Part shown: piece by piece, positions 2,965 through 59,280 of the stretch
How the letters are laid out: every line of letters starts with the position of its first letter
Position numbering within the stretch: the first letter of the stretch is position 1
Virus record (IMG/VR): IMGVR_UViG_3300046007_013304
Coordinates: 1-61,817 of that record
From: a virus
Taxonomy: Duplodnaviria; Caudoviricetes
DNA: 61,817 nucleotides
Strand: one strand, 5' to 3'
Notes under the pieces: generated by a model
What the model was told of the DNA's origin: nothing
Seen by the model: the letters and a program-made list of their open reading frames with translations, nothing else
Database searches by the model: none
Program-made: the position numbers and the translations under genes

Positions 2965-3252
2965 ATGACTACGAAGAAGAAGAAGAGCAGCAATTGTCTT
3001 GAGTACCACATCTCGCTCCACTGGAACAATTTGGGGGATGACCATGAATACTTCATCCACTCCCGTGCGATCGAGAGGTTGTATCCTCGTTCGTTCTCGG
3101 GTTCCGGCATGGGTATGGGTGGTTGTGATGTGAGCCTGTACTGCAAGAGGACTGATACCGTGGGCAAGATTGTCACTGGGCTCGTTCAGTATGTCAACAA
3201 GCACAACTTGATTGATCCTGACATTCTCATCTCGTTTCAGGAGAACGAATGA
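2965..3252 (+). CDS. hypothetical protein (SGSGMGMGGCD motif)
   Basis: ORF with SD AAGGA. Confidence 0.65.
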   Translation: MTTKKKKSSNCLEYHISLHWNNLGDDHEYFIHSRAIERLYPRSFSGSGMGMGGCDVSLYCKRTDTVGKIVTGLVQYVNKHNLIDPDILISFQENE

Positions 3253-3479
3253 CGAACACGATTGACTACCGCAAGGTCTGGTTGCAGAGTCTTGACGAGG
3301 GCAAGACTGTGTGGTGGGAAGATCCTCTTGGTCTTGACTCGGGTTGGTGGGAGATCAACAGCATTGAGTGTGATGATGTGATCAACAACATCGAGATGGC
3401 AGAGATCTCCCTCATCCGTGAAGACAGCACCGACATCCCCGAAGTAACCACAGACGAAATCTTTCCAAGGAAGCCATGA
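3249..3479 (+). CDS. hypothetical SH3-like small protein
   Basis: ATGA overlap with upstream gene; resembles repeats of the 1472 ORF. Confidence 0.65.
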   Translation: MTNTIDYRKVWLQSLDEGKTVWWEDPLGLDSGWWEINSIECDDVINNIEMAEISLIREDSTDIPEVTTDEIFPRKP

Positions 3480-3655
3480 GATACAATCACGCAATTACCG
3501 TTTCATTCAGTATTGATTCAGACAGCGATGCAGAGGACATCACCAGCGAAGAGATCGGTGATCGCCTCGTTCGCATTCTGAACCACTCCGATCTCCTCGC
3601 GGAACTTATCGAGACTGCGGAGATCTATGACACCGTGGAGAACGACGAGGAATAA
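3476..3655 (+). CDS. 59-aa acidic hypothetical protein (MRYNHAITVSFSIDSDSDAED...ENDEE)
   Basis: Translated by hand; ATGA overlap; fills the gap; missed by the ORF cutoff. Confidence 0.65.
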   Translation: MRYNHAITVSFSIDSDSDAEDITSEEIGDRLVRILNHSDLLAELIETAEIYDTVENDEE

Positions 3656-3659
3656 TACA

Positions 3660-3887
3660 ATGAAGCATGCTTACACCGTTTACATTCACGACTATGCACA
3701 CGGTCCCATCACGGACGATAACATGATCATCTGTGACGAAACGAATCTTGTGTTTGCAATCAACAAGATGCTTGAGAGAGGGAATGGTAGCAAGTCTGTC
3801 TGTGTCAAGCGATGCCAACTGATGACCGATCCCACCAACACTGACGAATATCGTATGGGCGCATGGGGCAAGGGCAAGGACGAGTAA
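3660..3887 (+). CDS. hypothetical protein
   Basis: SD GAGGA before ATG 3660. Confidence 0.6.
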   Translation: MKHAYTVYIHDYAHGPITDDNMIICDETNLVFAINKMLERGNGSKSVCVKRCQLMTDPTNTDEYRMGAWGKGKDE

Positions 3888-3893
3888 TAACAA

Positions 3894-4229
3894 ATGTCTA
3901 ACGAAGATCTTTTTTTCTGGTTCACTAGGATTGTCGGCATGTCTATTCTCATCACCATCGCGGCTCCCATCATCGGAATCGCATTCTCTGCGGCATCGTA
4001 TGGTGCATCTTTTTTCGGCGGTCTAAGGTCAGACGACGATGATTATGATGAGTCTCTGGTTGCAGATCTTGACTGGGAAGAAGAGGAAGTCGAGGAGCCT
4101 CCGGTCAAGAAGCGTGTGTCTCGCAGTCTAAATACAGGTTCCTCAGTCAAGGAGTACCGTCTGCCGGATGGCAGCAAGGTGGCTTTCAATACCACTGAGG
4201 TTGAAGTATCAGAACGATCAGCAATCTAA
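3894..4229 (+). CDS. membrane protein with N-terminal TM helix and acidic linker
   Basis: Hydrophobic IVGMSILITIAAPIIGIAF followed by a D/E-rich stretch. Confidence 0.65.
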   Translation: MSNEDLFFWFTRIVGMSILITIAAPIIGIAFSAASYGASFFGGLRSDDDDYDESLVADLDWEEEEVEEPPVKKRVSRSLNTGSSVKEYRLPDGSKVAFNTTEVEVSERSAI

Positions 4230-4239
4230 AGGAGAACAC

Positions 4240-4365
4240 ATGCTAGAGGATACTGTGGAAACTTTGCCGGGATGGATAAAATTTATTATCGCAGTGGGAG
4301 CAGGAACCATTATGGGTTTGGCGACCGCACAATTTTTAATGATGATGGGTATGGGACATGGGTAA
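4240..4365 (+). CDS. 41-aa single-TM membrane peptide
   Basis: SD AAGGAG; WIKFIIAVGAGTIMGLATAQFL. Confidence 0.6.
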   Translation: MLEDTVETLPGWIKFIIAVGAGTIMGLATAQFLMMMGMGHG

Positions 4366-4469
4366 ATCTTTTAATGATCGAAACCGCAAGAAGGGCGCAG
4401 AGCGTGCCTATCGCAAGACGCGACGAGATGACCGAAGGACTGGTCCTAACCGAAGCAGAGAGGACTGGT

Positions 4470-4748
4470 ATGGGTCAGAACGACGAGACATTTCAGACAA
4501 GCAGACCGATCGTAGTAGTCAACCTTGACTGTGGATTTGAATTGTATGTCTGGACCCCAGAGATGAACGGGGAGGAACTTCGCGGATGGTTCTCAGGGCT
4601 CTCTGAAGAGGCTATGACAAACATCTGGGACGATCCCAAGTCTCTCCCCGGTAAGGTGGAGAGACTTGCCTTAGCCCGTCCACAGAGTCCTACCCATGTC
4701 CTGAGCGTGGAAGGAAAGAAAGAAATAACGCTGGTGGAAATGAAGTAG
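4470..4748 (+). CDS. hypothetical protein (alternative start 4374)
   Basis: SD GAGAGGA before ATG 4470. Confidence 0.55.
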   Translation: MGQNDETFQTSRPIVVVNLDCGFELYVWTPEMNGEELRGWFSGLSEEAMTNIWDDPKSLPGKVERLALARPQSPTHVLSVEGKKEITLVEMK

Positions 4749-4933
4749 GGAGTCCCTGTTCGGAACTCCCTCCTCACTCACAATTTGTACGACGCGAATT
4801 GATTATCTATTGTTGATAGTAGATTATTTTTGTCTTAATCTGTAAAGATCTGCTGGTGTTATCTCCAGTTTTTATTTATCAAATAAAAAGTGTGTGAAAA
4901 TGTTCACAATCTTTATTTCTCTGTTACCACCTG

Positions 4934-4941
4934 TATAAATA
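4934..4941 (+). promoter_or_regulatory. T4-type late promoter with no downstream CDS
   Basis: Exact TATAAATA. Confidence 0.65.
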
Positions 4942-4946
4942 CTCTT

Positions 4947-5040
4947 GTCCTGATTCAAGGGAAAATGGGTTCTAAGTAACCTTAGAGTACCTTTAAGATT
5001 AATTGGGCGGCAAATCCCGGTGAAAACATCGGGATTTATT
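4947..5040 (+). ncRNA. candidate small RNA, copy A
   Basis: Late promoter, 5' motif shared with the 52729 element, internal hairpin TCTAAG/CTTAGA, 3' hairpin AAATCCCGGTG-AAAA-CATCGGGATTT. Confidence 0.45.
5011..5040 (+). terminator. hairpin terminator between converging transcripts
   Basis: 11-bp stem with one G-U pair on the + strand, followed by a T-rich run. Confidence 0.55.
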
Positions 5041-5428
5041 ATTTAAACACAGGTGATATTATTTTTCTGATGGTATCATATAAAGAACCGCCCACCGAAT
5101 TTCTTACACTGCTGAACGATTCCGACATTCTGTCTTTCCTGACACCAAGATTTCTAACAAGTTCTTTCTTACCCCCATCATCATGGACTGAAGAAACATA
5201 TGTCGAGGATGCCATTCCGCCCGCTGATGGAGTTGTTTCAGGATCAAATTCTTCATCATCGGATTCCTCATCTGACGATTCTTCATCTGGTTTCAGCCAA
5301 GAAGGTGGACCAACAAAATCTGGAGACAATTCTGGATCTTTATCATCCTCATACCATTTGTCACCCTTTTCAAGTTCGTTAAGAATTTGAAAAACATGTT
5401 CCCTGATGATTTCTGATCGGGCATTCAT
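5039..5428 (-). CDS. acidic hypothetical protein, putative head-internal protein
   Basis: Last gene of a three-gene minus-strand operon; N-terminal IIREHVFQILNE. Confidence 0.6.
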   Translation of the reverse strand: MNARSEIIREHVFQILNELEKGDKWYEDDKDPELSPDFVGPPSWLKPDEESSDEESDDEEFDPETTPSAGGMASSTYVSSVHDDGGKKELVRNLGVRKDRMSESFSSVRNSVGGSLYDTIRKIISPVFK

Positions 5429-5429
5429 T

Positions 5430-6536
5430 TTAATCTATGTAAACATTCCTGTTGGAACCGTCAACATAATATCTTTTGCCCTTATTGTCGGTCCAAACCT
5501 TTTGGGCTCCCGGGGCATCTGATTTGACCACCGATTTCGTGGTCTTGTCATACATGTAACTTCCTTGAGGCATTTGCCTGCTTTGTGTTTGTCCCGGTTG
5601 TCCTTTGTATGTTGTGCTGGGAGTTGCAGATCCGGTGGGATTTGGTGCAGTGCGTGGATTTCCATCCGTATCTATTTCACCCTTGTTGTATGCCACTGCC
5701 TTGTCATATTCGCCTTGGCTTGCATCACTGTATCCTGATGGATTCGTTGCTCTTATTTCCTTTTCGAGAGCATCACGCTCGGCTTTTGTTTCTGCCCTTA
5801 TTTGTGCCTCACTCTTTTGATTTGCCATTACATCTGCGAGATTTTTTTCTGCTGCTCTTGCTTGACCTTCAGCCGCAACATATTCTGCTCCGGTCTGACT
5901 TCTTGCGCCGATTCTGCCAAGCATTTTCGCTTTTTGACTGGCTTCCCAGTCGGCTATTTTCTTTGCTTTTTCTGTTTCTCGATATGCTGCTTTTGCGGCA
6001 GGGTCTCTGTCTCTGGCTCTCGCCTGATTCATTTCATCTTTTTGTTGCTTGTTGTATGCATCCACTTGTTCTTGTGAAGCGGGTCCATCCAATTTCAATT
6101 CTCTTCCGACTATTTTTTCTCTTTCTGCTCTTGCTTTTCCACCAAGACCATAACCGCCCGCGTATTCAGCATCAAATTGTTTTTTGCCTGCTTCAATTTT
6201 GGTCCCCAATTGCTTACGCCAAATTCTTAACATTTCCTGTGATCTTTTGTATTCATCAGTCGGAAGGGATGATGGATCAACACCAAATCCTTTCAGTTCA
6301 TCATCACTGTAACGATCCTTCCAATTTCCTATGAATTCGGTTTTTCTTTCATCTCTTTTGGCATTACGGTTCTTTAAATTTTCTTGTCTGAGTGCTTCTC
6401 TTGCTTGCATAGCCTCAAATGAGGCTTTATCTGCTTCTGCTCTTTTTCTTGCTCTCTCCGCTCGTCTTTCTTCAAAACTAGACTCAAGTAAATGAGAAAT
6501 GGTATCATTCATCGCATTTAAACGGTTCATCTTCAT
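5430..6536 (-). CDS. charged helical protein, putative head-internal protein
   Basis: 368-aa ORF, SD AGAGGA, N-terminal ISHLLES. Confidence 0.7.
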   Translation of the reverse strand: MKMNRLNAMNDTISHLLESSFEERRAERARKRAEADKASFEAMQAREALRQENLKNRNAKRDERKTEFIGNWKDRYSDDELKGFGVDPSSLPTDEYKRSQEMLRIWRKQLGTKIEAGKKQFDAEYAGGYGLGGKARAEREKIVGRELKLDGPASQEQVDAYNKQQKDEMNQARARDRDPAAKAAYRETEKAKKIADWEASQKAKMLGRIGARSQTGAEYVAAEGQARAAEKNLADVMANQKSEAQIRAETKAERDALEKEIRATNPSGYSDASQGEYDKAVAYNKGEIDTDGNPRTAPNPTGSATPSTTYKGQPGQTQSRQMPQGSYMYDKTTKSVVKSDAPGAQKVWTDNKGKRYYVDGSNRNVYID

Positions 6537-6595
6537 TGTAAGTCCTCTGGTGTTTTAAATGCATGAATCCCAATTAAGGGATTTCTGCATGAGAT

Positions 6596-7606
6596 TTATC
6601 TAATTTTATCGCCTTTTGATTTCATTGTTTTACCAGTTTTCGCAATTTGTTTCAAATATGATTCCATAGCGTATACTGGTTCCAATAATCCAAATTTACC
6701 TCTTTTTATTTCTGTTGGCTTCGGTCCAGATCTTGGCGGGACATTTCCGGGTCCAACGCTTCCGAATGTATCTCCGAAATTATCGCTACCCCTAACAAAA
6801 CGATTATATGATTCTGGATTGCTTGTTCCAAGCAAATTTCTGACAAAATCACCAACACCAAACAAATTGTATCCTGCTTCTGGAGTGGTCATCGGTTCTC
6901 CTCTTGTGGTAGCCGGAGGAGGAGGAACTGCTGTTCCGTCTGCCCTGCGTCCGGGTGCCGGTGACTCACCGGACGGAGTAAATGATGGTGGTTGACCTGC
7001 TGGTCTTGCTGCGTCCAATGCTTGTTTGTTTGCTGCATTTAGTGCTCTCTGTGCTTCCACTTGTGCAGGAGTTTGACCTGTTTTTGGTGCTAACTGGTCT
7101 GCGGGGAGCATCGAAGGATGTTCCATAGCCTTTGCTTCTGGAGATCCTACTGCAACATCTGGAAGAGGTTCCACTCTAACATCGGCTCTTCCCGGAGCCG
7201 GTCTTATTCTCGGTGCATTTATGTTACTTGGAGGAGCCGGGGGTGCTGGAGGAGCCGGTATGTTTGGATTTTGTAATCCAAATGGATTGACTCCGGGAAT
7301 ATTGTCTGGACGACCAGCCGCTGCTTGTGCGGGTTGTCCGATTTGATTCACATTTGTGAATTTGACTAAGGGTTTATTGTAACTTGGTCTATTTAAATAT
7401 TCGCCACCGGCAGTTTTTGCTCTGGATAGGTCTCCATCATCACCTATTCCGAAAACCCTATCACCGCCCGGAGAATCTGTCTTATACAGTTCACCTGTTT
7501 GTTTATTGAATGCCCAATATTTACCACCAGATGTATTCGGTTGTTCGAATAAATGACGAATTGCTTCATTTATTTTTTGAATTCTTACAGCTTTATCGTA
7601 TCCCAT
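6596..7606 (-). CDS. Pro/Ala-rich low-complexity protein, putative head-internal protein
   Basis: 336-aa ORF, SD GGAG, AATAAATA late-type motif at 7663-7656. Confidence 0.7.
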   Translation of the reverse strand: MGYDKAVRIQKINEAIRHLFEQPNTSGGKYWAFNKQTGELYKTDSPGGDRVFGIGDDGDLSRAKTAGGEYLNRPSYNKPLVKFTNVNQIGQPAQAAAGRPDNIPGVNPFGLQNPNIPAPPAPPAPPSNINAPRIRPAPGRADVRVEPLPDVAVGSPEAKAMEHPSMLPADQLAPKTGQTPAQVEAQRALNAANKQALDAARPAGQPPSFTPSGESPAPGRRADGTAVPPPPATTRGEPMTTPEAGYNLFGVGDFVRNLLGTSNPESYNRFVRGSDNFGDTFGSVGPGNVPPRSGPKPTEIKRGKFGLLEPVYAMESYLKQIAKTGKTMKSKGDKIR

Positions 7607-7712
7607 TTTTTCTCCAGTTTTATTAGGGTATAGTTTGTCCTAAATAGTCATGGTATATTTATTACTTTTTAATTTCTCGGTAATGGTTTTCCGCCTAAAG
7701 CAAGGAGCATGC

Positions 7713-8117
7713 ATGCGACGAAAAGCCAAGAACATTATTCAGAGAGTGAAAAAAGAAGTAAAAAAACATAATATTGATCTGAAAGTCACCAATGGCTACA
7801 AAGTCTGGTGTGAATCAGAAAAATGCTACGGTTATTTCATACCCCCCGGAAAAAGAAAAAAGGGACAATTGGCTGTTGCCAAGGGGGACAAGAGGCATGT
7901 CGATTATCTCTGGGATCTTGCCCACGAACTTGCACACTTTCGTCAATGGAAAAGAGAAGATCCAATTCTTGAAAAATATGACAATGATGAGTCTCTGTAT
8001 GGAATATTGGAAAAGATGACTGAAAAGGAAGCCCAGAAGATTTTTTCTGGATGGGGATTGAATCCATCCAAAAGATTGAAGAAAAGGTCAAAAGAGTATT
8101 TACAACAAATTTCCTAA
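7713..8117 (+). CDS. HEXXH zinc metallopeptidase-like protein
   Basis: LAHELAHFRQW with downstream E-x3-E; SD AAGGAG; CCTAAATA at 7639. Confidence 0.7.
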   Translation: MRRKAKNIIQRVKKEVKKHNIDLKVTNGYKVWCESEKCYGYFIPPGKRKKGQLAVAKGDKRHVDYLWDLAHELAHFRQWKREDPILEKYDNDESLYGILEKMTEKEAQKIFSGWGLNPSKRLKKRSKEYLQQIS

Positions 8118-10200: not shown

Positions 10201-10244
10201 GGGTGTTGGCAAGAATCTAAAAAGATTGTTTTGAAGTCATGGGA

Positions 10245-10272
10245 TTGACAAGATTTAACGCCATGGTACAAT
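10245..10272 (+). promoter_or_regulatory. sigma70 promoter for the vWA/peptidase gene, leaderless
   Basis: TTGACA-16 nt-TACAAT with extended TG; ATG 6 nt downstream. Confidence 0.75.
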
Positions 10273-10278
10273 GGATGC

Positions 10279-12516
10279 ATGAGCAACATCAACCAGAACT
10301 CCAAGAGTATCTTCGCTCGCCTTCTTGCGACCGAAGACATTACCGTCATTCACACCCCCAATGTCCAGACCGCTTCCTTTGATCTTGCATCTCGCACGAT
10401 GCAACTTCCTATGTGGAAGGACATGGATCATCATCTGTATGACATGCTGATCGCCCATGAGGTGGGTCATGCCATCTACACTCCCAATGACAGAGATGGT
10501 TGGGAAGACAGCTCCAAGAAGATCTGTCCAGAGAATCCGGCTATCGGTCAGATGTACCTCAACATCGTGGAGGATGCTCGCATCGAGCGATTGATTCAGA
10601 AAAAGTATCCGGGTTCCAAGAAGGATTTCTGGTTCGGTTACGAGGATCTGTTTGACCGTGACATCTTTGATCTCAAGGACAAGAATCCGAAGGAACTGAA
10701 TCTTCTCGATCGTTTGAATCTCAAGTTCAAGGTCGGTCCCTTTGTCGATGTCGGTGAATTTGCTCCTGAAGAGCAAGTGTTTGTGAATCGCATGGAAACG
10801 GCTGAAACTTGGGAAGATGTTGTGGGTGTCGCCACTGATCTCTATTCTTTCATGGCTCAACAGGTTGAGAAGGAGCAAGAGTCTGATATGTCTATTGAAT
10901 TCGGAGAAGATGGAGACAAGACGGAAGATTCTCAGGAATCTGAGTCTTCTGCTCCTGCTCCGAAGAATGAAGGCGAAGGCGACAACTCTTCTTCTCAGCA
11001 GCCTGTTCCTTCTCAGGAAACCAATCCCGGAACGACCGAGAAGGCTGTCGAGGGCTCTGGCACGATCTCTGCATCTCCTGTTGCCACGAACATTCCGATT
11101 CCGAACACTCAGAAGAGCCTTGAGGAAAATCTTCAGAAGGTTTTTATTGATGAAAAGGCAAAGAGTGTCAAGTCTTGCCTGATTCCTGAGCCCAAGATTG
11201 ATAACATCATTCTTCCTCAGACTGCGATCTTGAACATGATCAACGATCATATTCGTGTGAATTATTTGCATAGCGAGTATGGCAAGAATTATTACAACAC
11301 CAAGAGGACTCTTGTTGAGAATGTTGTCCGTGAATTCCAGAAGGCTTCCAAGCCATCCGTTGATCTTCTCTGCAAGCAATTTGAGATGAAGAAAGCTGCG
11401 GATGTTCACAAGCGTACTTCCGTTCGCCGTACCGGTCTCCTGAATATGGATCGTCTGCATCAATACAAGATGACCGATAACATCTTCCTTTCCCGTAACA
11501 CCACCAAGGAAGGGAAGAATCACGGTCTTATCATGTTCATCGACTGGTCTGGTTCAATGGGCAATGTTCTTGCTGATACGATTCGTCAGATGATGGTGAT
11601 GATGGCTTTCTGCCGTCGTTGCAACATTCCTTACGAAATCTACGCATTCAACAATCGTCACCCCATTTTGAATTGGGACAATGGTTTTACTGATACGGAT
11701 TCGTGCATGGATTATCTCTGGGACATGCCCCGTAAGGATATTCCCTATCTGCATCTTCGCAAGTTGTGCCTTTTCAATCTTTTCAGTTCAACGAATGACA
11801 AGCACAAGGAATTCGAGATGCTTGTTCATTGCATGGGTTATGCTCTTGGCTATGAACGGGATGGGACTGGCTTCAATAAGCCCCATTACATGGACATGAT
11901 TCCCGGTTGGTTCACCCTGAATTCAACTCCACTTGAGGAAACTCTTGTTTGCATTCCCGCTATTCATGAGCAATTCGTCAAGAAGTATGGTCGCCAGATC
12001 AACCACACCGTCATTCTCACTGATGGCGAAGGTGATGGTTCCGGCAGTGAGTATTGTCATGAGATGATCGATCCAAAAACCCGTGCTCGTTATGATACCA
12101 GCAGCATCAACAAAATCGGTCTTCGTGCAGTGTGTTCTAGGACTCAGGCTCTGATTGATTGGGTAAAGGATCGTACCGATTCCCGCATCGTGTGCATGCA
12201 GTTGTATCCGCGTCACGGGTCCACTCATTATGTCTTTGAATACGGAACCGGAATTGAACGCAGGGCTGAAATGGAGAAAAAGAACAACAGCCAGTGGAAT
12301 AAGGAGAACTATATCGAGATTCCGAATGATCTTCATGCATACGATTCATATTTTATCGTGAAGGCAAAGAACGCGGTTGTGACCGACGATTTTGAGGAAA
12401 TTGACACCACAAACATGACCCCGACCAAGATCAAGACCAGTTTCATCAAGCACCAAAAGAAGAAGTTCATGAGCCGGTACATGATCAATCGGTTTGTGGA
12501 AATGATTGCGGCTTGA
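10279..12516 (+). CDS. CobT-like protein: HEXXH metallopeptidase-like domain, acidic linker and vWA domain
   Basis: HEVGHAIYT, NIVEDARIE, MIDAS DWSGSM, STPL, LTDGEG. Confidence 0.88.
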   Translation: MSNINQNSKSIFARLLATEDITVIHTPNVQTASFDLASRTMQLPMWKDMDHHLYDMLIAHEVGHAIYTPNDRDGWEDSSKKICPENPAIGQMYLNIVEDARIERLIQKKYPGSKKDFWFGYEDLFDRDIFDLKDKNPKELNLLDRLNLKFKVGPFVDVGEFAPEEQVFVNRMETAETWEDVVGVATDLYSFMAQQVEKEQESDMSIEFGEDGDKTEDSQESESSAPAPKNEGEGDNSSSQQPVPSQETNPGTTEKAVEGSGTISASPVATNIPIPNTQKSLEENLQKVFIDEKAKSVKSCLIPEPKIDNIILPQTAILNMINDHIRVNYLHSEYGKNYYNTKRTLVENVVREFQKASKPSVDLLCKQFEMKKAADVHKRTSVRRTGLLNMDRLHQYKMTDNIFLSRNTTKEGKNHGLIMFIDWSGSMGNVLADTIRQMMVMMAFCRRCNIPYEIYAFNNRHPILNWDNGFTDTDSCMDYLWDMPRKDIPYLHLRKLCLFNLFSSTNDKHKEFEMLVHCMGYALGYERDGTGFNKPHYMDMIPGWFTLNSTPLEETLVCIPAIHEQFVKKYGRQINHTVILTDGEGDGSGSEYCHEMIDPKTRARYDTSSINKIGLRAVCSRTQALIDWVKDRTDSRIVCMQLYPRHGSTHYVFEYGTGIERRAEMEKKNNSQWNKENYIEIPNDLHAYDSYFIVKAKNAVVTDDFEEIDTTNMTPTKIKTSFIKHQKKKFMSRYMINRFVEMIAA

Positions 12517-28220: not shown

Positions 28221-29390
28221 ATGTCATCCTGCTCCACAAGTTCAAATATTCAATCAACCATACTCACCCAGATCATAAGAGAAGAAAGTGACACAAAAAG
28301 AGTCGCTTTCAAGATATCAAGTGCAGATGCCGGAATTTCTTCGGGTGTAACCCTGGGTTCTGTCATACGATATGATGTAGGCACGGATCTTTACATGCCA
28401 TCAGACGCAAGAGATCCTTCGACAGCCGAAGTTGTAGGCATAGTCGAAAAAATAGAAAATGGCGTGTATACCGTAGTTGCAAATGGATTGATAACATATC
28501 CAAATATCAATTCCGTAATTAACGGTTACACTGGAAATTGTGCGGAGCTAGATCCAGCTACTGGTGGTGGAAGCGGTGGATCTGACATATTTTTCTTGAG
28601 CGACGGTTGTCCCGGAAAACTACAATTGATTGAGCCAACCACTCCGGGAAGAATAATAAAACCGGTCATGCAAAGAGTGAAGGTCGGTGCTTCTGGCTCT
28701 GTTCAATATAATGGCATCGTTTTGAATTATATTGGTTATGAAGTTTCCAGACTTGCATCATTGACATATGAGATAATAGGAAATCCCGGGGATGTCACAT
28801 TCACAAAAGAAAAGAATCCACCGGATGGATTTATAAATGTCACCAATCCACAAGTTTTAGATGTTGAAGATTATCCTGATCTTTATGATACATTTAAAAC
28901 TGATCATGGTGATTATGTTGAAAATGTGGTTTTGGATTCCCCCGGAAACATTACTTCATTAATTGATTCAGATATTGTTCAAAAGAATGGATCTGTCGTA
29001 GTATCAACCGGAAAGATAACCGGAACAGATCCTACCACAAATTCAATATTAATAATCAAAAAAACAGGACAACCAGAAACCGACACGACTAAAAATCTGT
29101 TTATCGGAAATATAAGATATGTCTCTACATCGGCATCTGTAAAATCATTTACTCTTCCTTCTGTCCCTGAAGAAACTATAAAATATGTTACTCCAACCGA
29201 AACAAAACAAGAAACTCTCACCCCATACATGAGAACCAAACCAAATGTGACTTCAGTTGCAATACCGGACACTCTGGAAATTGAGCAAATAAAATCAGAT
29301 AAGTTAATAACAAATGGTGTTGAAGTCGCCCCTAAATTACTGGATCTTGAATCAAGAATAGCATCAATTGAAAGGAAATTCGGGATCTAA
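28221..29390 (+). CDS. tail fibre-associated protein
   Basis: AEVVGIV, FFLSD..PG, EPTTPG..KP as in the 25981 ORF; collar-like YPDLY. Confidence 0.7.
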   Translation: MSSCSTSSNIQSTILTQIIREESDTKRVAFKISSADAGISSGVTLGSVIRYDVGTDLYMPSDARDPSTAEVVGIVEKIENGVYTVVANGLITYPNINSVINGYTGNCAELDPATGGGSGGSDIFFLSDGCPGKLQLIEPTTPGRIIKPVMQRVKVGASGSVQYNGIVLNYIGYEVSRLASLTYEIIGNPGDVTFTKEKNPPDGFINVTNPQVLDVEDYPDLYDTFKTDHGDYVENVVLDSPGNITSLIDSDIVQKNGSVVVSTGKITGTDPTTNSILIIKKTGQPETDTTKNLFIGNIRYVSTSASVKSFTLPSVPEETIKYVTPTETKQETLTPYMRTKPNVTSVAIPDTLEIEQIKSDKLITNGVEVAPKLLDLESRIASIERKFGI

Positions 29391-41791: not shown

Positions 41792-42349
41792 ATGGCTGGA
41801 GCAACAGGACAATCGATAGATGATTTTATTGACGGTTTTGGTGGTGGGTTAAGACCAAATAGATTTTTGGTTATTCCCACATTCCCCAGTGGCGTGACAC
41901 TTACGAATGCCAATGCTTATAGTTTTTTTATAAGAGCAGCGGCTCTTCCTAGTTCAGATTTAGCTGTAATTCCTATTGCTTATAGAGGAAGAACATTTAA
42001 AATGCCAGGAGCTAGAACATATACCCCCTGGCAAATGGTTGTATTAGATGATGTTGGTGGCGAATTATGGGATGTTTATCATTTGTGGTCAAGTAAAATA
42101 TTAAAACACAAATCAAATAAAATAGCCAGTTCCGGAACTAATATGGATGATTTTTCTAGTTTAATGGCAAGTCATACAATCAAACAACTTGATATAAATG
42201 GAACTACCGAAAAAACAGTTGTTCTTAATAAGTGTTGGCCATCTGAAGTAGGACCTGTTGAATTTTCTATGGCTGACAATGAAAATTATGTAACATTTAC
42301 AGTTACTTTAGAATATCAATACTTTACTACTGCTATAGGAGCAGGGTGA
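41792..42349 (+). CDS. gp19: tail tube protein gp19, copy 1
   Basis: GGGLRPNRF, YRGR.FKMPGARTY, CWPSEVG. Confidence 0.88.
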   Translation: MAGATGQSIDDFIDGFGGGLRPNRFLVIPTFPSGVTLTNANAYSFFIRAAALPSSDLAVIPIAYRGRTFKMPGARTYTPWQMVVLDDVGGELWDVYHLWSSKILKHKSNKIASSGTNMDDFSSLMASHTIKQLDINGTTEKTVVLNKCWPSEVGPVEFSMADNENYVTFTVTLEYQYFTTAIGAG

Positions 42350-42367: not shown

Positions 42368-42925
42368 ATGGCAAATAGTATACAAGACTTTATTTCAAAT
42401 TTTCAAGGTGGTTTAAGACCAAATAGATTTAGAGTTATCGGTGCCATAGGAGAAGATGGAGATACAACAGATTTTCATATAATATCAGCATCTCTTCCCG
42501 CTTCAAAAATTAGTACAATCGAAGTGCCATATAGGGGTAGAATTTATAAAATTCCAGGAAATAGAGAATATAGTGAATGGGAAATAACTATATTGGATGA
42601 TACTGCTTCAGGAACGGTCTTGTGGAAAGATTTTCATGATTGGAGTGAAAATTTTAATTCTCATGTGGCTAATACTTTAGCCGGTGGGATTGCTCCTGGT
42701 TTTGGTGCTGGCAGTAATGCTTCCGCTGATGGAGCAGGCATGAATGATTGGACTGTTGAACAATTAGATCTTAACGGTGTTGCGGTAAAAAAAGTAACAT
42801 TAATAAATTGTTGGCCATCAAAAGTCGGAGCCGTTTCCCTTTCTATGGATAAAAATGAAGAACTTGTAAGTTTCCCTGTAACAATACAATATCAATATAT
42901 TGAAATTGATGGTTTAACTGAATAA
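42368..42925 (+). CDS. gp19: tail tube protein gp19, copy 2
   Basis: GGLRPNRF, VPYRGRIYKIPGNREY, CWPSKVG. Confidence 0.88.
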   Translation: MANSIQDFISNFQGGLRPNRFRVIGAIGEDGDTTDFHIISASLPASKISTIEVPYRGRIYKIPGNREYSEWEITILDDTASGTVLWKDFHDWSENFNSHVANTLAGGIAPGFGAGSNASADGAGMNDWTVEQLDLNGVAVKKVTLINCWPSKVGAVSLSMDKNEELVSFPVTIQYQYIEIDGLTE

Positions 42926-49346: not shown

Positions 49347-49775
49347 ATGGAATTGGATTTCAAGACGATCGAGGCTGACCTTAAGCTCGATGAGACTCGC
49401 TTGGATGAGGAGTCGCTTCGTACACCGCAGTTACACAACAAGTACCTGATGCTACTGCTTCGTCTGAAGAACCGCAAGGACAGGCTTGAGCGTGATCTAA
49501 AGGCATTGCAAAAGGACAAATGGCTCTACTATACCGGTAAGATGTCTGAAGAGGAACACAAACGACTCGGATGGGAGCCATTTGAATTGAATGTGTTAAG
49601 AACTGATGTGGATCGCATTATGGATGCCGACAGAGACATTCTGGAGATAGAGGGTAAATATAGAGAACTTTGCCATGTCGTAAACTATATTGAGGATGTT
49701 GTGAAAGTCATATCTAACCGTCAATGGTCCATTCGTGCAGCAATAGACTGGCAAAAGTTCACAAACGGTCAATAA
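49347..49775 (+). CDS. uvsY: recombination mediator UvsY
   Basis: ESLRTPQLHNKY, WLYYTGK, NRQWSIRAAIDWQKF. Confidence 0.9.
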   Translation: MELDFKTIEADLKLDETRLDEESLRTPQLHNKYLMLLLRLKNRKDRLERDLKALQKDKWLYYTGKMSEEEHKRLGWEPFELNVLRTDVDRIMDADRDILEIEGKYRELCHVVNYIEDVVKVISNRQWSIRAAIDWQKFTNGQ

Positions 49776-49783
49776 ATACTAAT

Positions 49784-51313
49784 ATGGAACATGTGAGTAT
49801 AGAGGCGGTAGATTCCGTCTTCATTCGTATCAATGCCGAAAAATCGGTCATCAAGGAGATGAGCCAATTTTTTAGTTTTGAAGTGCCTAACCATAAATAT
49901 ATGCCCGCCTACAAAAATAGGGTGTGGAATGGTAGGATAAATCTTCTCAATACTCATAAAAATGTAATTTATCGTGGTCTTCTTGATTATGTAATAAAAT
50001 TTTGCAAAGATCGAAACTATTCATGCTCCCTGTTCGAAGAGTCGGAAACAATCCCACAAAGAGACCACATATGCAAGTTTTTAGAAGAATTCGTGCAGCC
50101 ACATATAAGAGACGAAAAAGCAAACATCCACGACTACCAAATGGATGCTATTTTTCACGGCATAAAAAGAAAAAGATGTCTGTTGCTCTCTCCGACTGGC
50201 TCGGGGAAAAGCATGATAATATATTGTTTAATGAGATATTATTTGGAGACATTGCCAAAAGACAAGAAAATCTTGATCATTGTTCCGACGACTGGATTGG
50301 TCCAGCAAATGATTTCAGACTTCGCAGAATACTCGAAGAATACCAAATGGAAAGCAGACAGGAATTGTCACGGCATTCATGCAGGCAAGAGCAAACAAAC
50401 CGCAAAAAGAGTGGTGATATCTACTTGGCAAAGCATCTTTCGAGAACACAAAGACTGGTTCGATCAGTTCTCCGCCGTCTTTGGAGACGAATGTCATCAA
50501 TATCGAAGCCAGTCATTGGTCGCATTGATGACGAAATTAAAAGATTGTCCCTATAGGATAGGAACCACCGGAACGCTAGATAGCGTTTATGTTCATAAAT
50601 TAATTATCGAAGGGCTCTTCGGTCCAGTCTATAAGGTAACTAGCACCAAAGATCTCATCGATAAAAACATCTTGTCTGAACTTAAGGTCGAGTGTCTTTC
50701 GATCAACCATTCCGACACAGATCGTGCTGCCCTCAAGAGGCGAACCTACCAGGAAGAAATTGAATGGATTGTCACGGACGAGAGAAGAAACAAGTTCATC
50801 GTGCAACTTGCCGAGAAACTGAAGGGGAATACACTCATTCTGTTCAATTATGTCGAAAAACAAGGCAAACCCCTTTTCAAGATGCTCGAAGGATCAAGTA
50901 AGAATATTTATTTCATTTACGGAAAGACAGAAACGGAGATGCGCGAGCAAATTCGAAAAATTGTTGACAAAGATGATAATTCCATAATGGTTGCGAGTTA
51001 TGGCACGACAAGCACAGGCATTAATATTCGAAACATTCACAACATTATCTTTGCCTCCCCATCCAAATCTGTTATTCGAGTTCTTCAATCTATAGGTAGA
51101 GGACTTCGAAAAAGCGAAACAAAACAAAATGTTGTGATTTATGATATTTCAGATGATCTTCGTTACAAAAAATATGACAACCATACTTATCGTCATCTGC
51201 AGGAAAGGCTTCGGATATATAATAAAGAACGATTCGTGCATAATTTAATATCAATAAATCTCCGGAAGGATGAGAATGGAAAAGAAAATAAATTACAAAA
51301 TAATGAAACTTAG
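49784..51313 (+). CDS. uvsW: SF2 DNA helicase UvsW
   Basis: SPTGSGKS, DECH, QSIGRGLRK. Confidence 0.95.
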   Translation: MEHVSIEAVDSVFIRINAEKSVIKEMSQFFSFEVPNHKYMPAYKNRVWNGRINLLNTHKNVIYRGLLDYVIKFCKDRNYSCSLFEESETIPQRDHICKFLEEFVQPHIRDEKANIHDYQMDAIFHGIKRKRCLLLSPTGSGKSMIIYCLMRYYLETLPKDKKILIIVPTTGLVQQMISDFAEYSKNTKWKADRNCHGIHAGKSKQTAKRVVISTWQSIFREHKDWFDQFSAVFGDECHQYRSQSLVALMTKLKDCPYRIGTTGTLDSVYVHKLIIEGLFGPVYKVTSTKDLIDKNILSELKVECLSINHSDTDRAALKRRTYQEEIEWIVTDERRNKFIVQLAEKLKGNTLILFNYVEKQGKPLFKMLEGSSKNIYFIYGKTETEMREQIRKIVDKDDNSIMVASYGTTSTGINIRNIHNIIFASPSKSVIRVLQSIGRGLRKSETKQNVVIYDISDDLRYKKYDNHTYRHLQERLRIYNKERFVHNLISINLRKDENGKENKLQNNET

Positions 51314-52013: not shown

Positions 52014-52688
52014 ATGAAATCTTTTCGTGACTACATTTCGGAGGATATATTTTTAAGATCAGCCAAAAAAAGAACTGATGTAAGTCCCGGTCAAAATTTT
52101 TCTCCTTTTTATGCCAAATATCACACAATTTTAGATTCAGACAGATTACAAAAACATTATGATCAAATAAAATCTTTTCGTCACAGGGGAATGCAATTTA
52201 AATTGCTTTCTACTAGAGATGAGGATCTAAAGGAAAGAATGTTTATTATTGCTCATGTCGGAGAAGATAATAAATTAAGAGACATTGGCAGGGTTGGCGT
52301 TTTGGTGGGAAATAAAAAAGAACTCATAAATGATAGAGTTCAGACTCAGCTTGGAAGAAAACCAGAAGCTATAAGCCTGGAACCAGAGCTTCATGAAGAT
52401 TTTACAGGTAAGGGATTGATGTCCAGAGTCTATAAAATGATTGCAAAACACCACAAAGTTGATATTATATCAGACTTAGACCAGACCAAAGGGTCCAAAA
52501 AAATTTGGGATGAATTGGCTAAGACAGGCAGAGTAAGAGGTGTTCACACCAGAGGTGAAAGAGAACCTTTCTCTTATGATCCAAAAAATGAAGATCATGT
52601 CAACACAATCTATACTGATTTCAACCCAAGAGACAAGGAAATGCCGACCAGCAGAGGAAACAGTTATCTACTTCATTATACTCACTGA
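52014..52688 (+). CDS. GNAT-fold acetyltransferase-like protein with capsid-targeting sequence
   Basis: MKSFRDYISE; LHEDFTGKGLMSRVY; SDLDQTKGSKKIWDEL. Confidence 0.7.
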   Translation: MKSFRDYISEDIFLRSAKKRTDVSPGQNFSPFYAKYHTILDSDRLQKHYDQIKSFRHRGMQFKLLSTRDEDLKERMFIIAHVGEDNKLRDIGRVGVLVGNKKELINDRVQTQLGRKPEAISLEPELHEDFTGKGLMSRVYKMIAKHHKVDIISDLDQTKGSKKIWDELAKTGRVRGVHTRGEREPFSYDPKNEDHVNTIYTDFNPRDKEMPTSRGNSYLLHYTH

Positions 52689-52689
52689 T

Positions 52690-52729
52690 CTCAAAAGAAC
52701 ACTTAACCCAATGGTGCTTGAATCAGGAC
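52690..52729 (-). ncRNA. candidate small RNA, copy B
   Basis: Begins GTCCTGATTCAAG 6 nt after the -10 box; weak hairpin followed by CTTTT. Confidence 0.45.
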
Positions 52730-52735
52730 AAGGTA

Positions 52736-52764
52736 ATTATAAAAGACCTCAAAAAACTTGTCAA
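52736..52764 (-). promoter_or_regulatory. consensus sigma70 promoter with no CDS behind it
   Basis: TTGACA-17 nt-TATAAT on the - strand. Confidence 0.8.
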
Positions 52765-52797: not shown

Positions 52798-52826
52798 TTG
52801 CTTTTATTCATTGTTTGTGATATAAT
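52798..52826 (+). promoter_or_regulatory. sigma70 promoter for gp55, leaderless
   Basis: TTGCTT-17 nt-TATAAT with extended TG; ATG 6 nt downstream. Confidence 0.8.
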
Positions 52827-52832
52827 GGTGAC

Positions 52833-53363
52833 ATGCCAAAGAAAACAAACCATTACATAGACAACAAAGAATTCTTCAAACAAATGGTGGCGTGGAAGAA
52901 GACAGTTGATGCCGCAGAAGATAGCGGCGATCCACGACCACCTGTGACTAATTATATTGGAACTTGTATACTCAATATAGCAGAGCATCTTTCTCAAAAA
53001 CCCAACTTTGCAAATTATCCCTACAGGGAAGAGATGGTGGGAGATGGAATAGAAAACTGCTTGATGTATGCTCACAACTTCAATCCAAGAAAATCAAAGA
53101 ATCCATTTTCTTATTTCACGCAAATCATATACTTTGCCTTTTTAAGACGAATAGAAAAAGAAAAGAAGCAGGCATATGTGAAATTGAAAGCCACAGAGAT
53201 GATGGATGATGGAACAATGCATCGTTGGTTTCGGGAAAATTATCTTGAAAATGACAGAAAAGATTCCGAAAATCCTCTTCTGGATGTGTTCCAATTGAAC
53301 GAATTGGACATGAAGAGATTGTCGGGTGAAAAGAAAAAGAAGAAAAAGAAGAAAAAAAAATGA
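52833..53363 (+). CDS. gp55: late transcription sigma factor gp55
   Basis: HYIDNKEF, PNFANY.YREEM.GDGIENC, NPFSYFTQIIYFAFLRRI. Confidence 0.96.
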   Translation: MPKKTNHYIDNKEFFKQMVAWKKTVDAAEDSGDPRPPVTNYIGTCILNIAEHLSQKPNFANYPYREEMVGDGIENCLMYAHNFNPRKSKNPFSYFTQIIYFAFLRRIEKEKKQAYVKLKATEMMDDGTMHRWFRENYLENDRKDSENPLLDVFQLNELDMKRLSGEKKKKKKKKKK

Positions 53364-54412
53364 AACTTGGGATCATAACCGACACCCACATAGGAATAAG
53401 AAACGACTCCCCGATATTTTTTGAGAATTCAATCTCTTTTTTCAGGGATGTGTTTTTTCCATATTGCAAACAACATGACATCACCAAGGTTCTGCATCTT
53501 GGTGATTTTTTTGATCGCCGTAAGTACATAAACATCAACATACTTTCTGAAACTCGTAAAAAGATCCTTGCTCCAATGAAAGAGCAGGGGATTTACATGG
53601 ATCTCATTCTTGGGAACCATGATTGTTATTTTAAGAACACAAATGCGGTGAATGCTCCCCGGGAAATGTTCGCATGTTTTGATAACATCAATGTCATCGA
53701 AAAACCGGTGATCAATGATTACGATGGGTATTGTATCGGAATGATGCCTTGGATCACCAAGGAAAATGTGGAAGAATCCAAGAAGTTCATCAAGGAAGCA
53801 GCATGCAGAACCCTTGCCGGTCACTTTGAAATAGATGGAAGAGAAGTCCTTCGAGGCATTCGCCATGAGGGAGGTATGCCTTCTACCTTGTTCAAGAAAT
53901 ACGACATGGTAATGTCTGGGCATTTCCACATTCGAAGTTACGAAGATAACATCTCTTATTTTGGGACCCCATACCAATTGTACATGAGTGATCTAAACGA
54001 ACAAAAGGGATTTCATGTGTTGGATACAGCAAGCGGCGAAATAGAATTCGTGGAAAATCCCAGACAAATGTTCAGGCAATATGTGTACGATGACAGCGGA
54101 AAAAATAAAGACACGATTCTCTCCGCCGATTATTCTGAGGCAAAGAATTGTTATGTAAAGATATTCGTAAAACAGAAAAAACATTCATCCGTTCTTGAAC
54201 AGATGATGGAAAAATTGTATAATAGCGGTGCGTACAACATAACCATTGCTGAAGATGCATATGAAGACGAACAAGTTGCAACAGAGGTTGACTTGTCACA
54301 AGATACATTCAGTCTCATTAGCACTGAAATTGATGGAATGGAATTGACTCAGGACAAGATAAAATTGAAGTCTTTGATAAAAGACATATTCATCGAAAGC
54401 CAGCACAGATGA
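53360..54412 (+). CDS. gp47: recombination nuclease gp47 (Mre11/SbcD-like)
   Basis: DTH, GDFFDRR, GNHD, GHF, SGHFH. Confidence 0.95.
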   Translation: MKLGIITDTHIGIRNDSPIFFENSISFFRDVFFPYCKQHDITKVLHLGDFFDRRKYININILSETRKKILAPMKEQGIYMDLILGNHDCYFKNTNAVNAPREMFACFDNINVIEKPVINDYDGYCIGMMPWITKENVEESKKFIKEAACRTLAGHFEIDGREVLRGIRHEGGMPSTLFKKYDMVMSGHFHIRSYEDNISYFGTPYQLYMSDLNEQKGFHVLDTASGEIEFVENPRQMFRQYVYDDSGKNKDTILSADYSEAKNCYVKIFVKQKKHSSVLEQMMEKLYNSGAYNITIAEDAYEDEQVATEVDLSQDTFSLISTEIDGMELTQDKIKLKSLIKDIFIESQHR

Positions 54413-56124: not shown

Positions 56125-56141
56125 TCAAATAAATACTGAAT

Positions 56142-58295: not shown

Positions 58296-59280
58296 TATGC
58301 CATTAGAAAACGGATTTCAATTACCTTTCGGTATACAGCCAGTCAACCCAAAACCAGTTGATACTTGGTCGGGTCCTTTCACCGGCGCATCTGAAAGTGA
58401 AGCAAAATCATTAGCAAATGCTTCAATTCCACTCGGTGTAAGATTTAATTCAATGGAAGTTCGTCTTATCATTAACGGGCTTCCTAAAAAATTCTGGTAT
58501 TATGGTGGAACAGGTGATTCTGATCTTAGCGAGATTGTAACATCTGCATCAGGTGTAACAGGATTTACAGGTCCAACAGGACCGACCGGAGATCCTGGAA
58601 TTCAAGGAAACACTGGAAATACTGGCAACACAGGAGCAACAGGACCGACAGGAAATTACCTAAGTCCTAATGTAAATGCATCAGGCAATTTAATATTTAC
58701 CACTTTATATTGGGACGGGGTTGAAGTTCCTGGAGCAACAAAAATAAACGCCGGTTATGTTATAGGTCGTACCGGGTCTACAGGAAACACAGGAACAACA
58801 GGAAACACCGGAGCAACAGGAACTGGTGTAACAGGATTTGCCGTGTCAGGAGACAATCTTTATTTCTGGTATACTAATTCTACCGGACAGACATTCGGGG
58901 CTCTTCAGAATGCTGGATATATTAGAGGTGCTACAGGAAACACCGGAAATACAGGAAATACCGGATCTACGGGAAACGGTGTAACTGGATTTTTTGTAAA
59001 TAGGGACACTTTAGTTTATTGGTACATGAATGCTTTTGGACAAACCATAGGTTCTCTTCAAACAGCAGGCTTTGTTTTAGGAAATACCGGAGCAACAGGA
59101 GATCCGGGTTCAAAGGGAGATCAGGGTGAACCAGGTATACAAGGCAATACTGGACCGACTGGACCTACGGGGAGCGGTGTAACAGGATTTACAGTTTCTG
59201 GTGATAACCTTTACTTTTGGTACATGAATTCCTCTGGATTGACTTTTGGCGCATTTCAAAATGCAGGATATGTGAGAGGT
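56868..59280 (+). repeat. four copies of the GVTGF.V..D.L..WY....G.T.G..Q.AG module
   Basis: Copies start at 56868, 58825, 58978 and 59176 and are similar at the DNA level. Confidence 0.85.

Follow-up and report, generated by a model that had tools for sequence, protein, structure and literature searches.

The window, which is the whole 61,817-nt stretch of DNA analysed in this study, carries two exact copies of the 16-mer CTTGTCCTGATTCAAG, copy A at 4944-4959 on the plus strand and copy B at 52717-52732 on the minus strand. Copy B lies beside gp55, the gene of the late sigma factor (52833-53363(+), or 52798-53363 with its promoter; phrog_234, E 1.3e-57). It follows a sigma70 promoter, TTGACA-N17-TATAAT at 52736-52764(-), that diverges from gp55, matches the consensus at 12 of 12 positions and is the only sigma70 site in the window without a mismatch. 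The TTGACA box (52764-52759(-)) is spaced by 17 nt from TATAAT (52741-52736(-)), and the 16-mer begins after a further 3 nt. Back-to-back with this promoter stands gp55's own, TTGCTT-17-TGaTATAAT with 6 nt to the ATG, and the gp55 mRNA is probably leaderless; in many lineages gp55 is preceded by TATAAT and 5-9 nt to the ATG, with no Shine-Dalgarno sequence. The B cassette adjoins uvsW, uvsY and gp46/47, and an ATAAATA precedes an in-frame uvsW start at 49784.

From promoter B, a transcript is predicted to begin at G 52729, which places the 16-mer at its positions -3 to +13. Its predicted path (52014-52729(-)) comprises 41 nt of intergenic sequence and then runs antisense to a gene at 52014-52688(+), with an undefined end. 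This gene encodes a protein of 224 amino acids that is real and conserved at the protein level, and the promoter aims into it, an anatomy that fits a cis-antisense RNA, the transcript being a predicted one. No terminator-like site was found on the minus strand downstream of B until 50565-50547, and minus-strand sites of this kind are at chance level (9 found versus 7.5 expected). Around 52611-52583(-) a weak hairpin carries a U run; it is not kept in L047 and was set aside as chance. We infer that B yields an early non-coding antisense transcript of undefined length.

Copy A stands behind a promoter of another type. The T4-type late promoter motif TATAAATA is matched at 8 of 8 positions at 4934-4941(+), with no -35 box upstream, and only the two bases 'ct' separate it from the 16-mer. 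There are only three TATAAATA in the window, the other two sitting 15-16 nt ahead of gene starts, and 9 of the 16 ATAAATA in the window lie at most 60 nt upstream of an ORF on the same strand. The hallmarks of a T4-type late promoter, namely TATAAATA (NATAAATA in this phage group) and a phage-encoded gp55, are both present, and we regard the late promoter of copy A as putative on the strength of this sequence match. Starting at G 4947, a non-coding late RNA of about 95 nt is predicted (4947-5045(+)), with a predicted fold of -28.3 kcal/mol (z -2.39 versus shuffles). It contains a predicted hairpin at 4971-4986(+) and one ORF of four codons, ATGGGTTCTAAGTAA (MGSK*), at 4965-4979(+); the sole plus-strand ORF of at least 20 amino acids there is a 29-aa GTG frame (4890-4979) that starts upstream of the promoter. 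At 5012-5047(+) follows an intrinsic-terminator-like hairpin of 11 pairs (5012-5037) with the T-rich tail ATTATTTAAA, abutting the stop of a convergent gene at 5039-5428(-). The exact repeat behind a late and a perfect sigma70 promoter, and the hairpins without a real ORF at A, are as the original prediction had described them. Its proposal of a small RNA at both loci fits the anatomy of A, a putative discrete unit with its own promoter, about 95 nt free of a real ORF and an intrinsic terminator, and is not supported for B, where there is no terminator and the predicted transcript runs antisense. A would yield a late RNA of about 95 nt whose first 13 nt are the same as those of B, and we lean slightly towards A being transcribed as a discrete RNA.

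The two RNAs are predicted to start at the same G, 4947(+) and 52729(-), on the basis of the usual promoter spacing rules and of the leaderless genes of the window, which show TATAAT+6 nt+ATG (gp55), TACAAT+6 nt+ATG (10279) and ATAAATA+6 nt+ATG (56142). Downstream of the 16-mer, TGGGTT-AAGT follows at equal distance in A and B. The window contains 20 dispersed pairs of exact 16-mers versus a mean of 2.5 in dinucleotide shuffles, and at least one such pair occurs in 25 of 30 shuffles; the bare 16-mer pair by itself is at chance level. What is above chance is the context, that is, the promoter plus motif of B kept in relatives and a 21-nt match between A and the relative L048. Viral contigs hold 39 exact matches to the 16-mer, with promoter context or family flanks in none of the 39. 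Two further motif matches in the window were set aside as chance, one at 54343-54358(-) with 2 mismatches, which lies within the gp47 coding sequence and has no promoter, and one at 29346-29361 with 3 mismatches.

The 21-nt exact match, TGTCCTGATTCAAGGGAAAAT at 4946-4966, is to the gp55-side cassette of L048 and has an E value of 1.4e-5 in 421 kb of related loci. To judge by sequence, copy A is homologous to the gp55 cassette across the -10 region plus some 35 transcribed nucleotides, and the exact late promoter occupies the former -10 position. A 15-nt match of L048:476-490 to the junction of A falls within uvsW coding sequence and was rejected as chance. Copy A sits between convergent genes in a variable ORFan region, and no relatives of the flanking proteins (5039-5428(-), 5430-6536(-) and 4272-4748(+)) were found in viral contigs. 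The gene at 6596-7606(-), in the operon that faces A, has an ATAAATA 49 nt upstream, and around A the GC content steps from 0.47-0.49 on the left to 0.42 on the right. For window positions 3000-8000, the matching sequencing data are 23 runs of DNA with a lake-water label and a single run of RNA, X24 (share 0.06). DNA contigs from runs X5, X6 and X7 over A equal the window sequence exactly; RNA contigs from X24 lie at 3616-3835, 4391-4555 and 7237-7417, none over A, and are uninformative on transcription either way.

Conservation of the gp55-divergent promoter

We compared 80 related loci with a gp55 that is 54-90% identical. A promoter with at most one mismatch, on the opposite strand and at most 350 nt upstream of gp55, is present at 53 of the 80 and is perfect at 35, versus 12 of 800 control windows taken within these loci; on the gp55 strand the count is 13 of 80. 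The same arrangement is found in HTVC008M, S-RSM4 and S-RIM32. In one set of gp55 loci, every promoter outside the gp55 frame lies 13-148 nt from the gp55 match and never with an intervening gene, and six loci where gp55 overlaps or abuts its upstream gene (gap -8 to 25 nt) have no promoter. The cassette adjoins gp55 with or without the 224-aa gene upstream, and the antisense target of the promoter differs among lineages, the promoter being aimed at the 3' end of the upstream gene, whichever that is. By these comparisons, many aquatic T4-like phages keep the predicted promoter next to gp55 and in the same orientation. The promoter is not annotated in the two RefSeq cyanophage records examined, and we found no description of it in the literature searched.

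The original prediction had staked itself on promoter-linked conservation of the motif in related phages, and at locus B this is what we found: the motif stands directly after TTGACA-N17-TATAAT, on the strand opposite gp55, in 12 of 12 related contigs. Within the window's own clade (11 distinct sequences) all six bases of the -35 and all six of the -10 are invariant (mean pairwise identity 1.0 for each), as are 12 of the 16 bases of the 16-mer (0.90), 2 of the 17 of the spacer (0.50) and none of the next 30 nt (0.43). Across the family the spacer length is 16-18. RNAalifold on 50 distinct homologous transcript starts gave 0 consensus base pairs, and the first 40 nt, folded one sequence at a time, give weak structures that do not agree with one another (-2.5 to -7.8 kcal/mol). 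Hairpins picked out by eye, GAUUCA/UGRRYY and the 5'-terminal GUCSU/ARKRC, were discarded as weak, mutually exclusive and inconsistent across homologues, and inverted repeats straddling the start site are no better than in shuffles (mean shuffle frequency 0.40). Because consensus pairs are absent and the antisense target differs between lineages, the family appears to conserve a promoter and not an RNA. Rfam at the gathering threshold returned nothing at either locus, and relaxing the cut-off to E 5 brought four matches at chance level, none over A or B. The idea of a single small-RNA family finds no backing in these results.

A second copy of the own start sequence occurs in 0 of 5 long related records and in 0 of 1 complete genome (HTVC008M); each of the related records G001-G005 has the gp55-side copy alone, plus one 1-mismatch match in G004. 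The viral scan with TATAAN{3,6}CTTGTCNNGATTCA returned 53 stretches, of which 10 are family members, all on the gp55 side, and the three matches to TGTCNNGATTCAAGGGAAAAT are likewise all gp55-side. None of the 16 matches to the late-promoter-plus-motif pattern in a metagenome scan is a family member. Copy A, as recognised by these patterns, is unique to this record across every search made, the relatives being mostly short fragments of which none covers the region homologous to locus A (for G001-G005 by estimate). The early/late twin that had been envisaged does not recur in the long records, the complete genome or the metagenome scan. Host matches did not turn up either: the 21-mer is matched by 0 contigs of bacterial and archaeal genomes, and for TATAATNNNCYTGTCNNGATTCAA there are 6 matches, none with a -35 box or family flanks. 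Taken as a whole, the earlier interpretation is partly supported.

Possible roles of the cassette

We hold with high confidence that the anatomy as a whole is a conserved divergent B promoter with its 16-mer and, at A, a homologous late-promoter copy with a terminator. Our best reading, to which we give an even chance, is that the former is a gp55-linked divergent early promoter module and the latter a phage-specific copy of it under a late promoter, with a putative function. As to the mechanism, we tentatively propose, at rather less than even chance, that the cassette acts mainly at the level of transcription. It would make up one half, the non-coding one, of an early promoter module that serves gp55 and fires in both directions, in which the firing of B and its antisense RNA would counter read-through from the uvsW-side operon. 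With read-through opposed, the gp55 promoter, whose mRNA is apparently leaderless, would be kept free. The conserved 16-mer might be a promoter-proximal (initial transcribed) module required for high output, and copy A might be the same module re-used behind a late promoter, facing the 3' end of the convergent late operon in equal geometry. The timing of a direct collision is uncertain, because B is early but the opposed operon looks late, with ATAAATA before uvsW.

Two observations concern these roles. A role at the transcription level does not on its own account for 12 of 16 bases being fixed at -3 to +13 while the spacer drifts, a pattern that suits a 5' tag on the RNA or a site bound by a protein no less well. 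RNA A would end at its terminator before entering the facing gene, which also counts against this reading.

It is unlikely, in our view, that both loci encode small regulatory RNAs with the common 13-nt 5' end GUCCUGAUUCAAG, expressed early at B and late at A and acting by pairing in trans or as a decoy. Such RNAs would account for an identical 5' stretch behind two promoter types that is selectively conserved among relatives, and for the presence of a terminator and no ORF at A, where the exact TATAAATA in the -10 position suggests selection for late expression. The group is thought to obtain continuous expression by joining early and late promoters (PMC2984593, available part). In a concrete form of this proposal, both RNAs would match sense read-through RNA just upstream of gp55 by perfect complementarity over 16 nt, and RNA A, whose synthesis would depend on gp55, would in turn act on the late-sigma locus; RNA A is predicted to pair with the plus-strand RNA across B at -36.2 kcal/mol, though by construction. 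However, B has no terminator, the 50 sequences share 0 pairs with weak, inconsistent 40-nt folds, there is no Rfam match, and the twin arrangement is missing in all five long related records and the complete HTVC008M genome. The seed itself is variable at 3 of 13 positions. UCCU, which had been suggested to act as an anti-Shine-Dalgarno element, is kept in only 3 of 11 folded starts (winA, winB and L048), the others having UCGU or UCGG, a pattern that argues against this suggestion. Among 74 translation-start regions (about 34% of the genome searched) the best match of the seed is -11.9 kcal/mol, a value that 58% of shuffled seeds also reach. Still less probable is a full RNA circuit that guards the late sigma gene, in which the early cis-antisense B and the gp55-dependent late A would pair with read-through RNA. 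If it were true, RNA A would let the late sigma factor act back on the locus that encodes it, and the gp55-divergent promoter would be part of an early-to-late timing device in phages that lack MotA/AsiA.

Copy A may be without any function, and one account, as doubtful to us as that of the small RNAs, holds that it is a functionless recombination scar, the cassette being a homology patch for module exchange with only B mattering. The flanking proteins of A that have no relatives in viral contigs, the GC step at A, the loss of its -35 box and its absence from the other records searched are all consistent with a scar, as is the position of B at a boundary of gene presence and absence. PeSL-type cassettes are reported to cluster at indels in variable regions (PMC4122927), and a title in the reference list of PMC3016281 places recombination hot spots of T4 at its origins and promoters. 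A scar would hardly be expected, however, to carry an 8/8 late motif exactly where the -10 used to be, at the usual distance from the same G, and a good terminator in the correct orientation, and the 21-nt stretch common to A and L048 is undecayed.

A replication origin of the T4 oriF/oriG type, in which the hybridised non-coding transcript of an R-loop primes DNA synthesis and A is a late-firing copy, is more improbable again. It would suit a promoter that is strong and conserved with a transcript that is non-coding and poorly conserved across the family, the G cluster and purine run in the first 25 nt of many family members, and the place of the cassette beside uvsW, uvsY and gp46/47; R-loop formation at T4 origins is also described as not sequence-specific (PMC3016281, available part). 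The duplex downstream of each copy looks ordinary in stability, however (the least stable 60-bp stretch is at the 82nd percentile for A and at the 85th for B, and neither is among the 25 least stable), no skew change is seen at A or B, the strict adjacency to gp55 is unexpected for an origin, and the window's own B start is not purine-rich.

We give equally little credit to three last explanations taken jointly. The 16-mer could be a DNA operator through which a regulator of the phage or the host switches both promoters, as its conservation begins at -3, upstream of the RNA, and the same site lies behind two promoters, but the CTTG/CAAG dyad is not maintained, with uncompensated variation at positions 2 and 16, and we know of no protein that binds the 16-mer. 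A chance pair, expected for exact 16-mers in a window of this size, is ruled out by the clade conservation and the 21-nt L048 match. A small protein on the reverse strand, suggested by TTG-started MNQDK... frames opposite both copies that are open in relatives, was rejected on the substitution pattern, since every motif substitution (CAG/CAC/CCC, AAG/AGG) alters the amino acid and none falls on a silent third position, the hexamers do not vary at any position of a codon, and spacer lengths of 16-18 break any common frame.

Returning to the gp55-linked promoter module, its interest lies in the fact that gp55 is the master switch for late genes. A strong, conserved outward promoter adjacent to this gene would be a concrete and testable piece of the late-switch control region, and it can be tested in the cultured phages S-RSM4, S-RIM32 and HTVC008M. 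The late-driven duplicate in a lake phage would indicate that a promoter-proximal module can be duplicated and put to use in another temporal class. RNA A, if real, would be one of the few small RNAs that a T4-like phage makes late; should the cassette amount to no more than a promoter and a scar of recombination, the finding would be ordinary. How early-to-late timing is achieved in aquatic T4-like phages without MotA/AsiA is described as unresolved in the available part of PMC2984593.

Comparison with known systems

The PeSL (promoter-early stem-loop) cassettes of T4-type phages (Arbiol et al. 2010; Comeau et al. 2014, PMC4122927) resemble the present cassette in that a near-consensus sigma70 promoter is repeated in a T4-like genome, with copies at gene presence/absence boundaries and in variable regions that are plausible substrates for module shuffling. 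Promoter B has this near-consensus feature (12/12), and A, with no -35 box, does not. A PeSL is laid out as a stem-loop terminator upstream of the promoter and, on the promoter's other side, a Shine-Dalgarno site with the beginning of an ORF (PMC4122927). In contrast, the common part here lies downstream of the -10 with no ORF after it, and there are two copies only, one of them under a late promoter. No terminator abuts the -35 of B, the nearest minus-strand site being at 52942-52926, inside gp55 and about 160 nt upstream, and no ORF of at least 20 amino acids starts downstream of either promoter on its own strand.

As at T4 oriF and oriG, it would be the promoter's non-coding or incidental transcript that matters and not a protein, the transcribed sequence is poorly constrained, and the location is near recombination and replication genes. 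A promoter active before the late period, which is a feature of these origins, is predicted for B, while A has a late motif instead. The T4 origins differ in having MotA-dependent middle promoters and a marked A+T-rich unwinding element (PMC3016281, available part), whereas no exceptional unwinding element was found at A or B.

CfrI of cyanophage S-PM2, an RNA about 225 nt long, has been detected by experiment and lies at the psbA/homing endonuclease junction (PMC2984593, available part). Like transcript B, it is a cis-antisense non-coding transcript of an aquatic T4-like phage and overlaps the end of a protein gene; unlike CfrI, transcript B is a predicted one, located at gp55, and has no defined end. 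Finally, in RB49, S-PM2 and Syn9, which lack MotA/AsiA, early and late promoters are described in tandem before one gene (PMC2984593, available part). The two loci of the window differ from these in lying 48 kb apart and encoding nothing, and share with them the placing of the same transcribed sequence under an early sigma70 promoter and a late NATAAATA promoter.

The promoter divergent from gp55

The solid new fact from this analysis is a conserved promoter divergent from gp55, the late sigma factor gene, together with a late-driven duplicate of its start in the window's phage. Of 80 related loci fetched with gp55 as the query, 53 have a sigma70 consensus with at most one mismatch on the strand opposite gp55, no more than 350 nt upstream of it, and in 35 the match is perfect. 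The corresponding controls gave 12 of 800 windows and, for the gp55 strand itself, 13 of 80. Two-mismatch versions are recognisable in several of the other 27 loci, and all six loci in which the upstream gene adjoins or overlaps gp55 lack the promoter. The gp55-divergent position is occupied by TTGACA-17-TATAAT in HTVC008M and by TTGACA-17-TAGAAT in cyanophages S-RSM4 and S-RIM32, whose records annotate coding genes only over the stretches examined; in Melnitz the promoter is less clear. In S-RSM4 (locus L236) the divergent -35 box lies, as read by eye, 3 bp from that of the gp55-sense promoter. The two promoters overlap in loci L121, L122 and L081-L083, where the TTGACA of each falls at the start region of the other (TGTCAA at +1 to +6). 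Only three features 3' of the -10 box are common family-wide: the predicted start reads Y-TGT-G/C, a G cluster is frequent, and so is a purine run. No description of a gp55-divergent promoter or RNA was found in the literature searched, the coverage of which is incomplete; novelty is not proven.

The original prediction had joined the 16-mer at 4944-4959(+) (copy A) and its exact repeat at 52717-52732(-) (copy B), the latter behind a sigma70 promoter at 52736-52764(-), into one small-RNA family transcribed early from B and late from A. All its sequence statements on the two loci proved correct on re-check. The observation stands, and the interpretation is supported in part, any function being putative. 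The repeat alone, taken without its context, is insignificant: there are 20 dispersed pairs of exact 16-mers in the window, and at least one such pair occurs in 25 of 30 dinucleotide shuffles. Similarly, none of 39 exact matches in 2.9 million viral contigs has the promoter or family flanks, and their contexts are unrelated. The expected promoter-linked conservation in related phages was found at locus B: all 12 of 12 related contigs carry the motif in the interval that separates gp55 from its upstream neighbour. In the six closest loci (gp55 75-90% identical), the opposite strand immediately upstream of gp55 reads TTGACA-N17-TATAAT-N3-C[T/C]TGTC[C/G][T/G]GATTCAA[G/T]; a pattern scan for further copies returned 53 matching stretches, 10 of them family members and 43 unrelated. 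Across 11 distinct cassette sequences, all columns of the -35 and -10 boxes are invariant (6/6 each, mean pairwise identity 1.0), as are 2/17 spacer columns (0.50), 12/16 columns of the 16-mer (0.90) and 0/30 of the next 30 nt (0.43). This is the sequence pattern characteristic of a working promoter with a selected promoter-proximal element behind it. The predicted divergent promoter is far more widespread than the 16-mer motif. Between a 246-aa gene and the cassette at gp55, the window has a 224-aa gene (52014-52688) that recurs in L047, L048, L173 and L240 (45-54% identity) and is missing from the other close relatives; the cassette adjoins gp55 with or without it, and the presence/absence boundary falls exactly at the cassette.

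Across the family, the predicted transcript runs into the upstream gene in antisense after about 20-60 nt, with no ORF downstream. The minus strand of the window holds no terminator for more than 2 kb downstream of B, and by its anatomy B is therefore not a small-RNA gene as had been proposed. No consensus structure emerged among 50 distinct transcript starts; base composition accounts for the apparent inverted repeats that span the start. B is best described as a strong divergent promoter giving predicted non-coding antisense transcription.

Copy A and its genomic setting

Copy A matches the gp55-side cassette of L048 exactly over 21 nt (E 1.4e-5) and is, by this alignment, a homologue of that cassette. 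Beyond the 16-mer (GGGAAAAU-R-GG-UUCU) it is closer to L047 and L048 than to the window's own B. It lacks a -35 box and carries TATAAATA-CT where relatives have TATAAT-TCT or TATAAT-TAC. ATAAATA, which in 9 of its 16 occurrences in the window is followed within 60 nt by an ORF on the same strand, behaves as a putative late motif of this phage, in agreement with NATAAATA, reported for this phage group (PMC2984593). With a terminator-like hairpin at 5012-5037, the predicted unit is about 95 nt long. A second orphan late-type motif, ATAAATA at 4873-4879(-), 56 bp from the late promoter of A (4934-4941) and pointing the opposite way, is followed by a hairpin (4852-4869) and then by a terminator-like site (4771-4747, minus strand), so that two divergent small late units may lie between the convergent genes at A. 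For the proteins flanking A, viral contigs yielded no relatives, none of 16 matches in the metagenome scan is a family member, none of three matches to the extended motif lies away from gp55, and five long related records (35-75% complete) and the complete HTVC008M genome yielded no further copy of their local start sequence.

The window, an entire viral record of 61.8 kb, has no end repeats and an estimated completeness of about 34%. It encodes T4-type core genes, including gp55 (52833-53363; phrog_234, E 1.3e-57), a gp47-like nuclease (53360-54412), a UvsW-like helicase (49724-51313) and CobS- and CobT-like genes (9.2-12.5 kb). Its nearest named DNA-level relatives are the gp55 genes of Pelagibacter phage HTVC008M, Methylophilales phage Melnitz and many cyanophages (67-72% identity), and its stretch 3000-8000 is present in DNA runs labelled lake water. 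Gene orientation is mixed at 2.3-10.2 kb and nearly all plus from 10.3 kb on. The first 12.5 kb have a GC content of 0.42-0.49, versus 0.34-0.40 across most of the remainder, which may reflect a foreign origin of the left block or a mosaic junction; A lies between convergent genes at a GC step (about 4.7-5 kb). In DNA runs X5 and X6, contigs over 3240-3885 have diverged from the window by many substitutions and by one 145-nt segment swapped for another of equal length, and no differences are listed over 3999-8000 where read contigs cover the window; the former looks like a strain-level variable patch in a small-ORF region. Two adjacent 185-aa genes (41792-42349 and 42368-42925), with a common 18-nt exact repeat, are probably paralogues. 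A 17-19-nt repeat (GGTGTAACAGGATTTAC...) occurs at 56867, 58552 and 59176, inside genes 56142-58295 and 58297-59442.

Possible roles and known systems

In the window and many relatives, only 5-9 nt separate the -10 box of gp55's own promoter from the ATG, and gp55 has no Shine-Dalgarno site. Useful gp55 mRNA therefore probably must begin at this promoter, and RNA reading through from the operon upstream would be translated poorly. The window's gp55 (TGaTATAAT, 6 nt, ATG; 52798-52835) shares this leaderless look with the CobT-like gene starting at 10279 (TTGACA-16-TACAAT, 6 nt, ATG; 10238-10281), gene 56142 (ATAAATA, 6 nt, ATG; 56129-56144) and an in-frame ATG of the UvsW-like gene at 49784 (ATAAATA, 5 nt; 49772-49786). 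Kept across the family are the promoter, its orientation and its adjacency to gp55, with no conserved RNA sequence, structure or antisense target. This suggests that what matters is transcription itself or a sequence-unspecific product. Because of the probable dependence of gp55 on its own promoter, we tentatively favour a bidirectional early promoter module at gp55. Its non-coding arm would oppose or insulate read-through from the uvsW side and possibly assist the gp55 promoter, the 16-mer serving as an initial-transcribed module tuned for output. Copy A has the same geometry, in that its promoter points toward the 3' end of a convergent operon that is apparently late, and it may be this module placed under late control.

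What most weakens this transcription-level model is that the 12 of 16 fixed bases at -3 to +13 are just as well explained by a 5' tag on the RNA or by a protein site. The trans-acting RNA originally predicted seems unlikely, and copy A as a functionless recombination scar about equally so. An R-loop origin in the T4 oriF/oriG sense (PMC3016281) matches the pattern of a conserved promoter with a free transcript but draws no support from duplex stability or skew.

No known RNA family matched the cassette, and such an identity was not borne out. PeSL was rejected as well: it has a stem-loop upstream of the promoter and a downstream ORF start (PMC4122927), and the cassette has neither. The early-plus-late promoter pairing of MotA-less T4-like phages is similar, although here it is split over two loci. 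Judged by its sequence, the cassette would work most like a divergent or antisense promoter.
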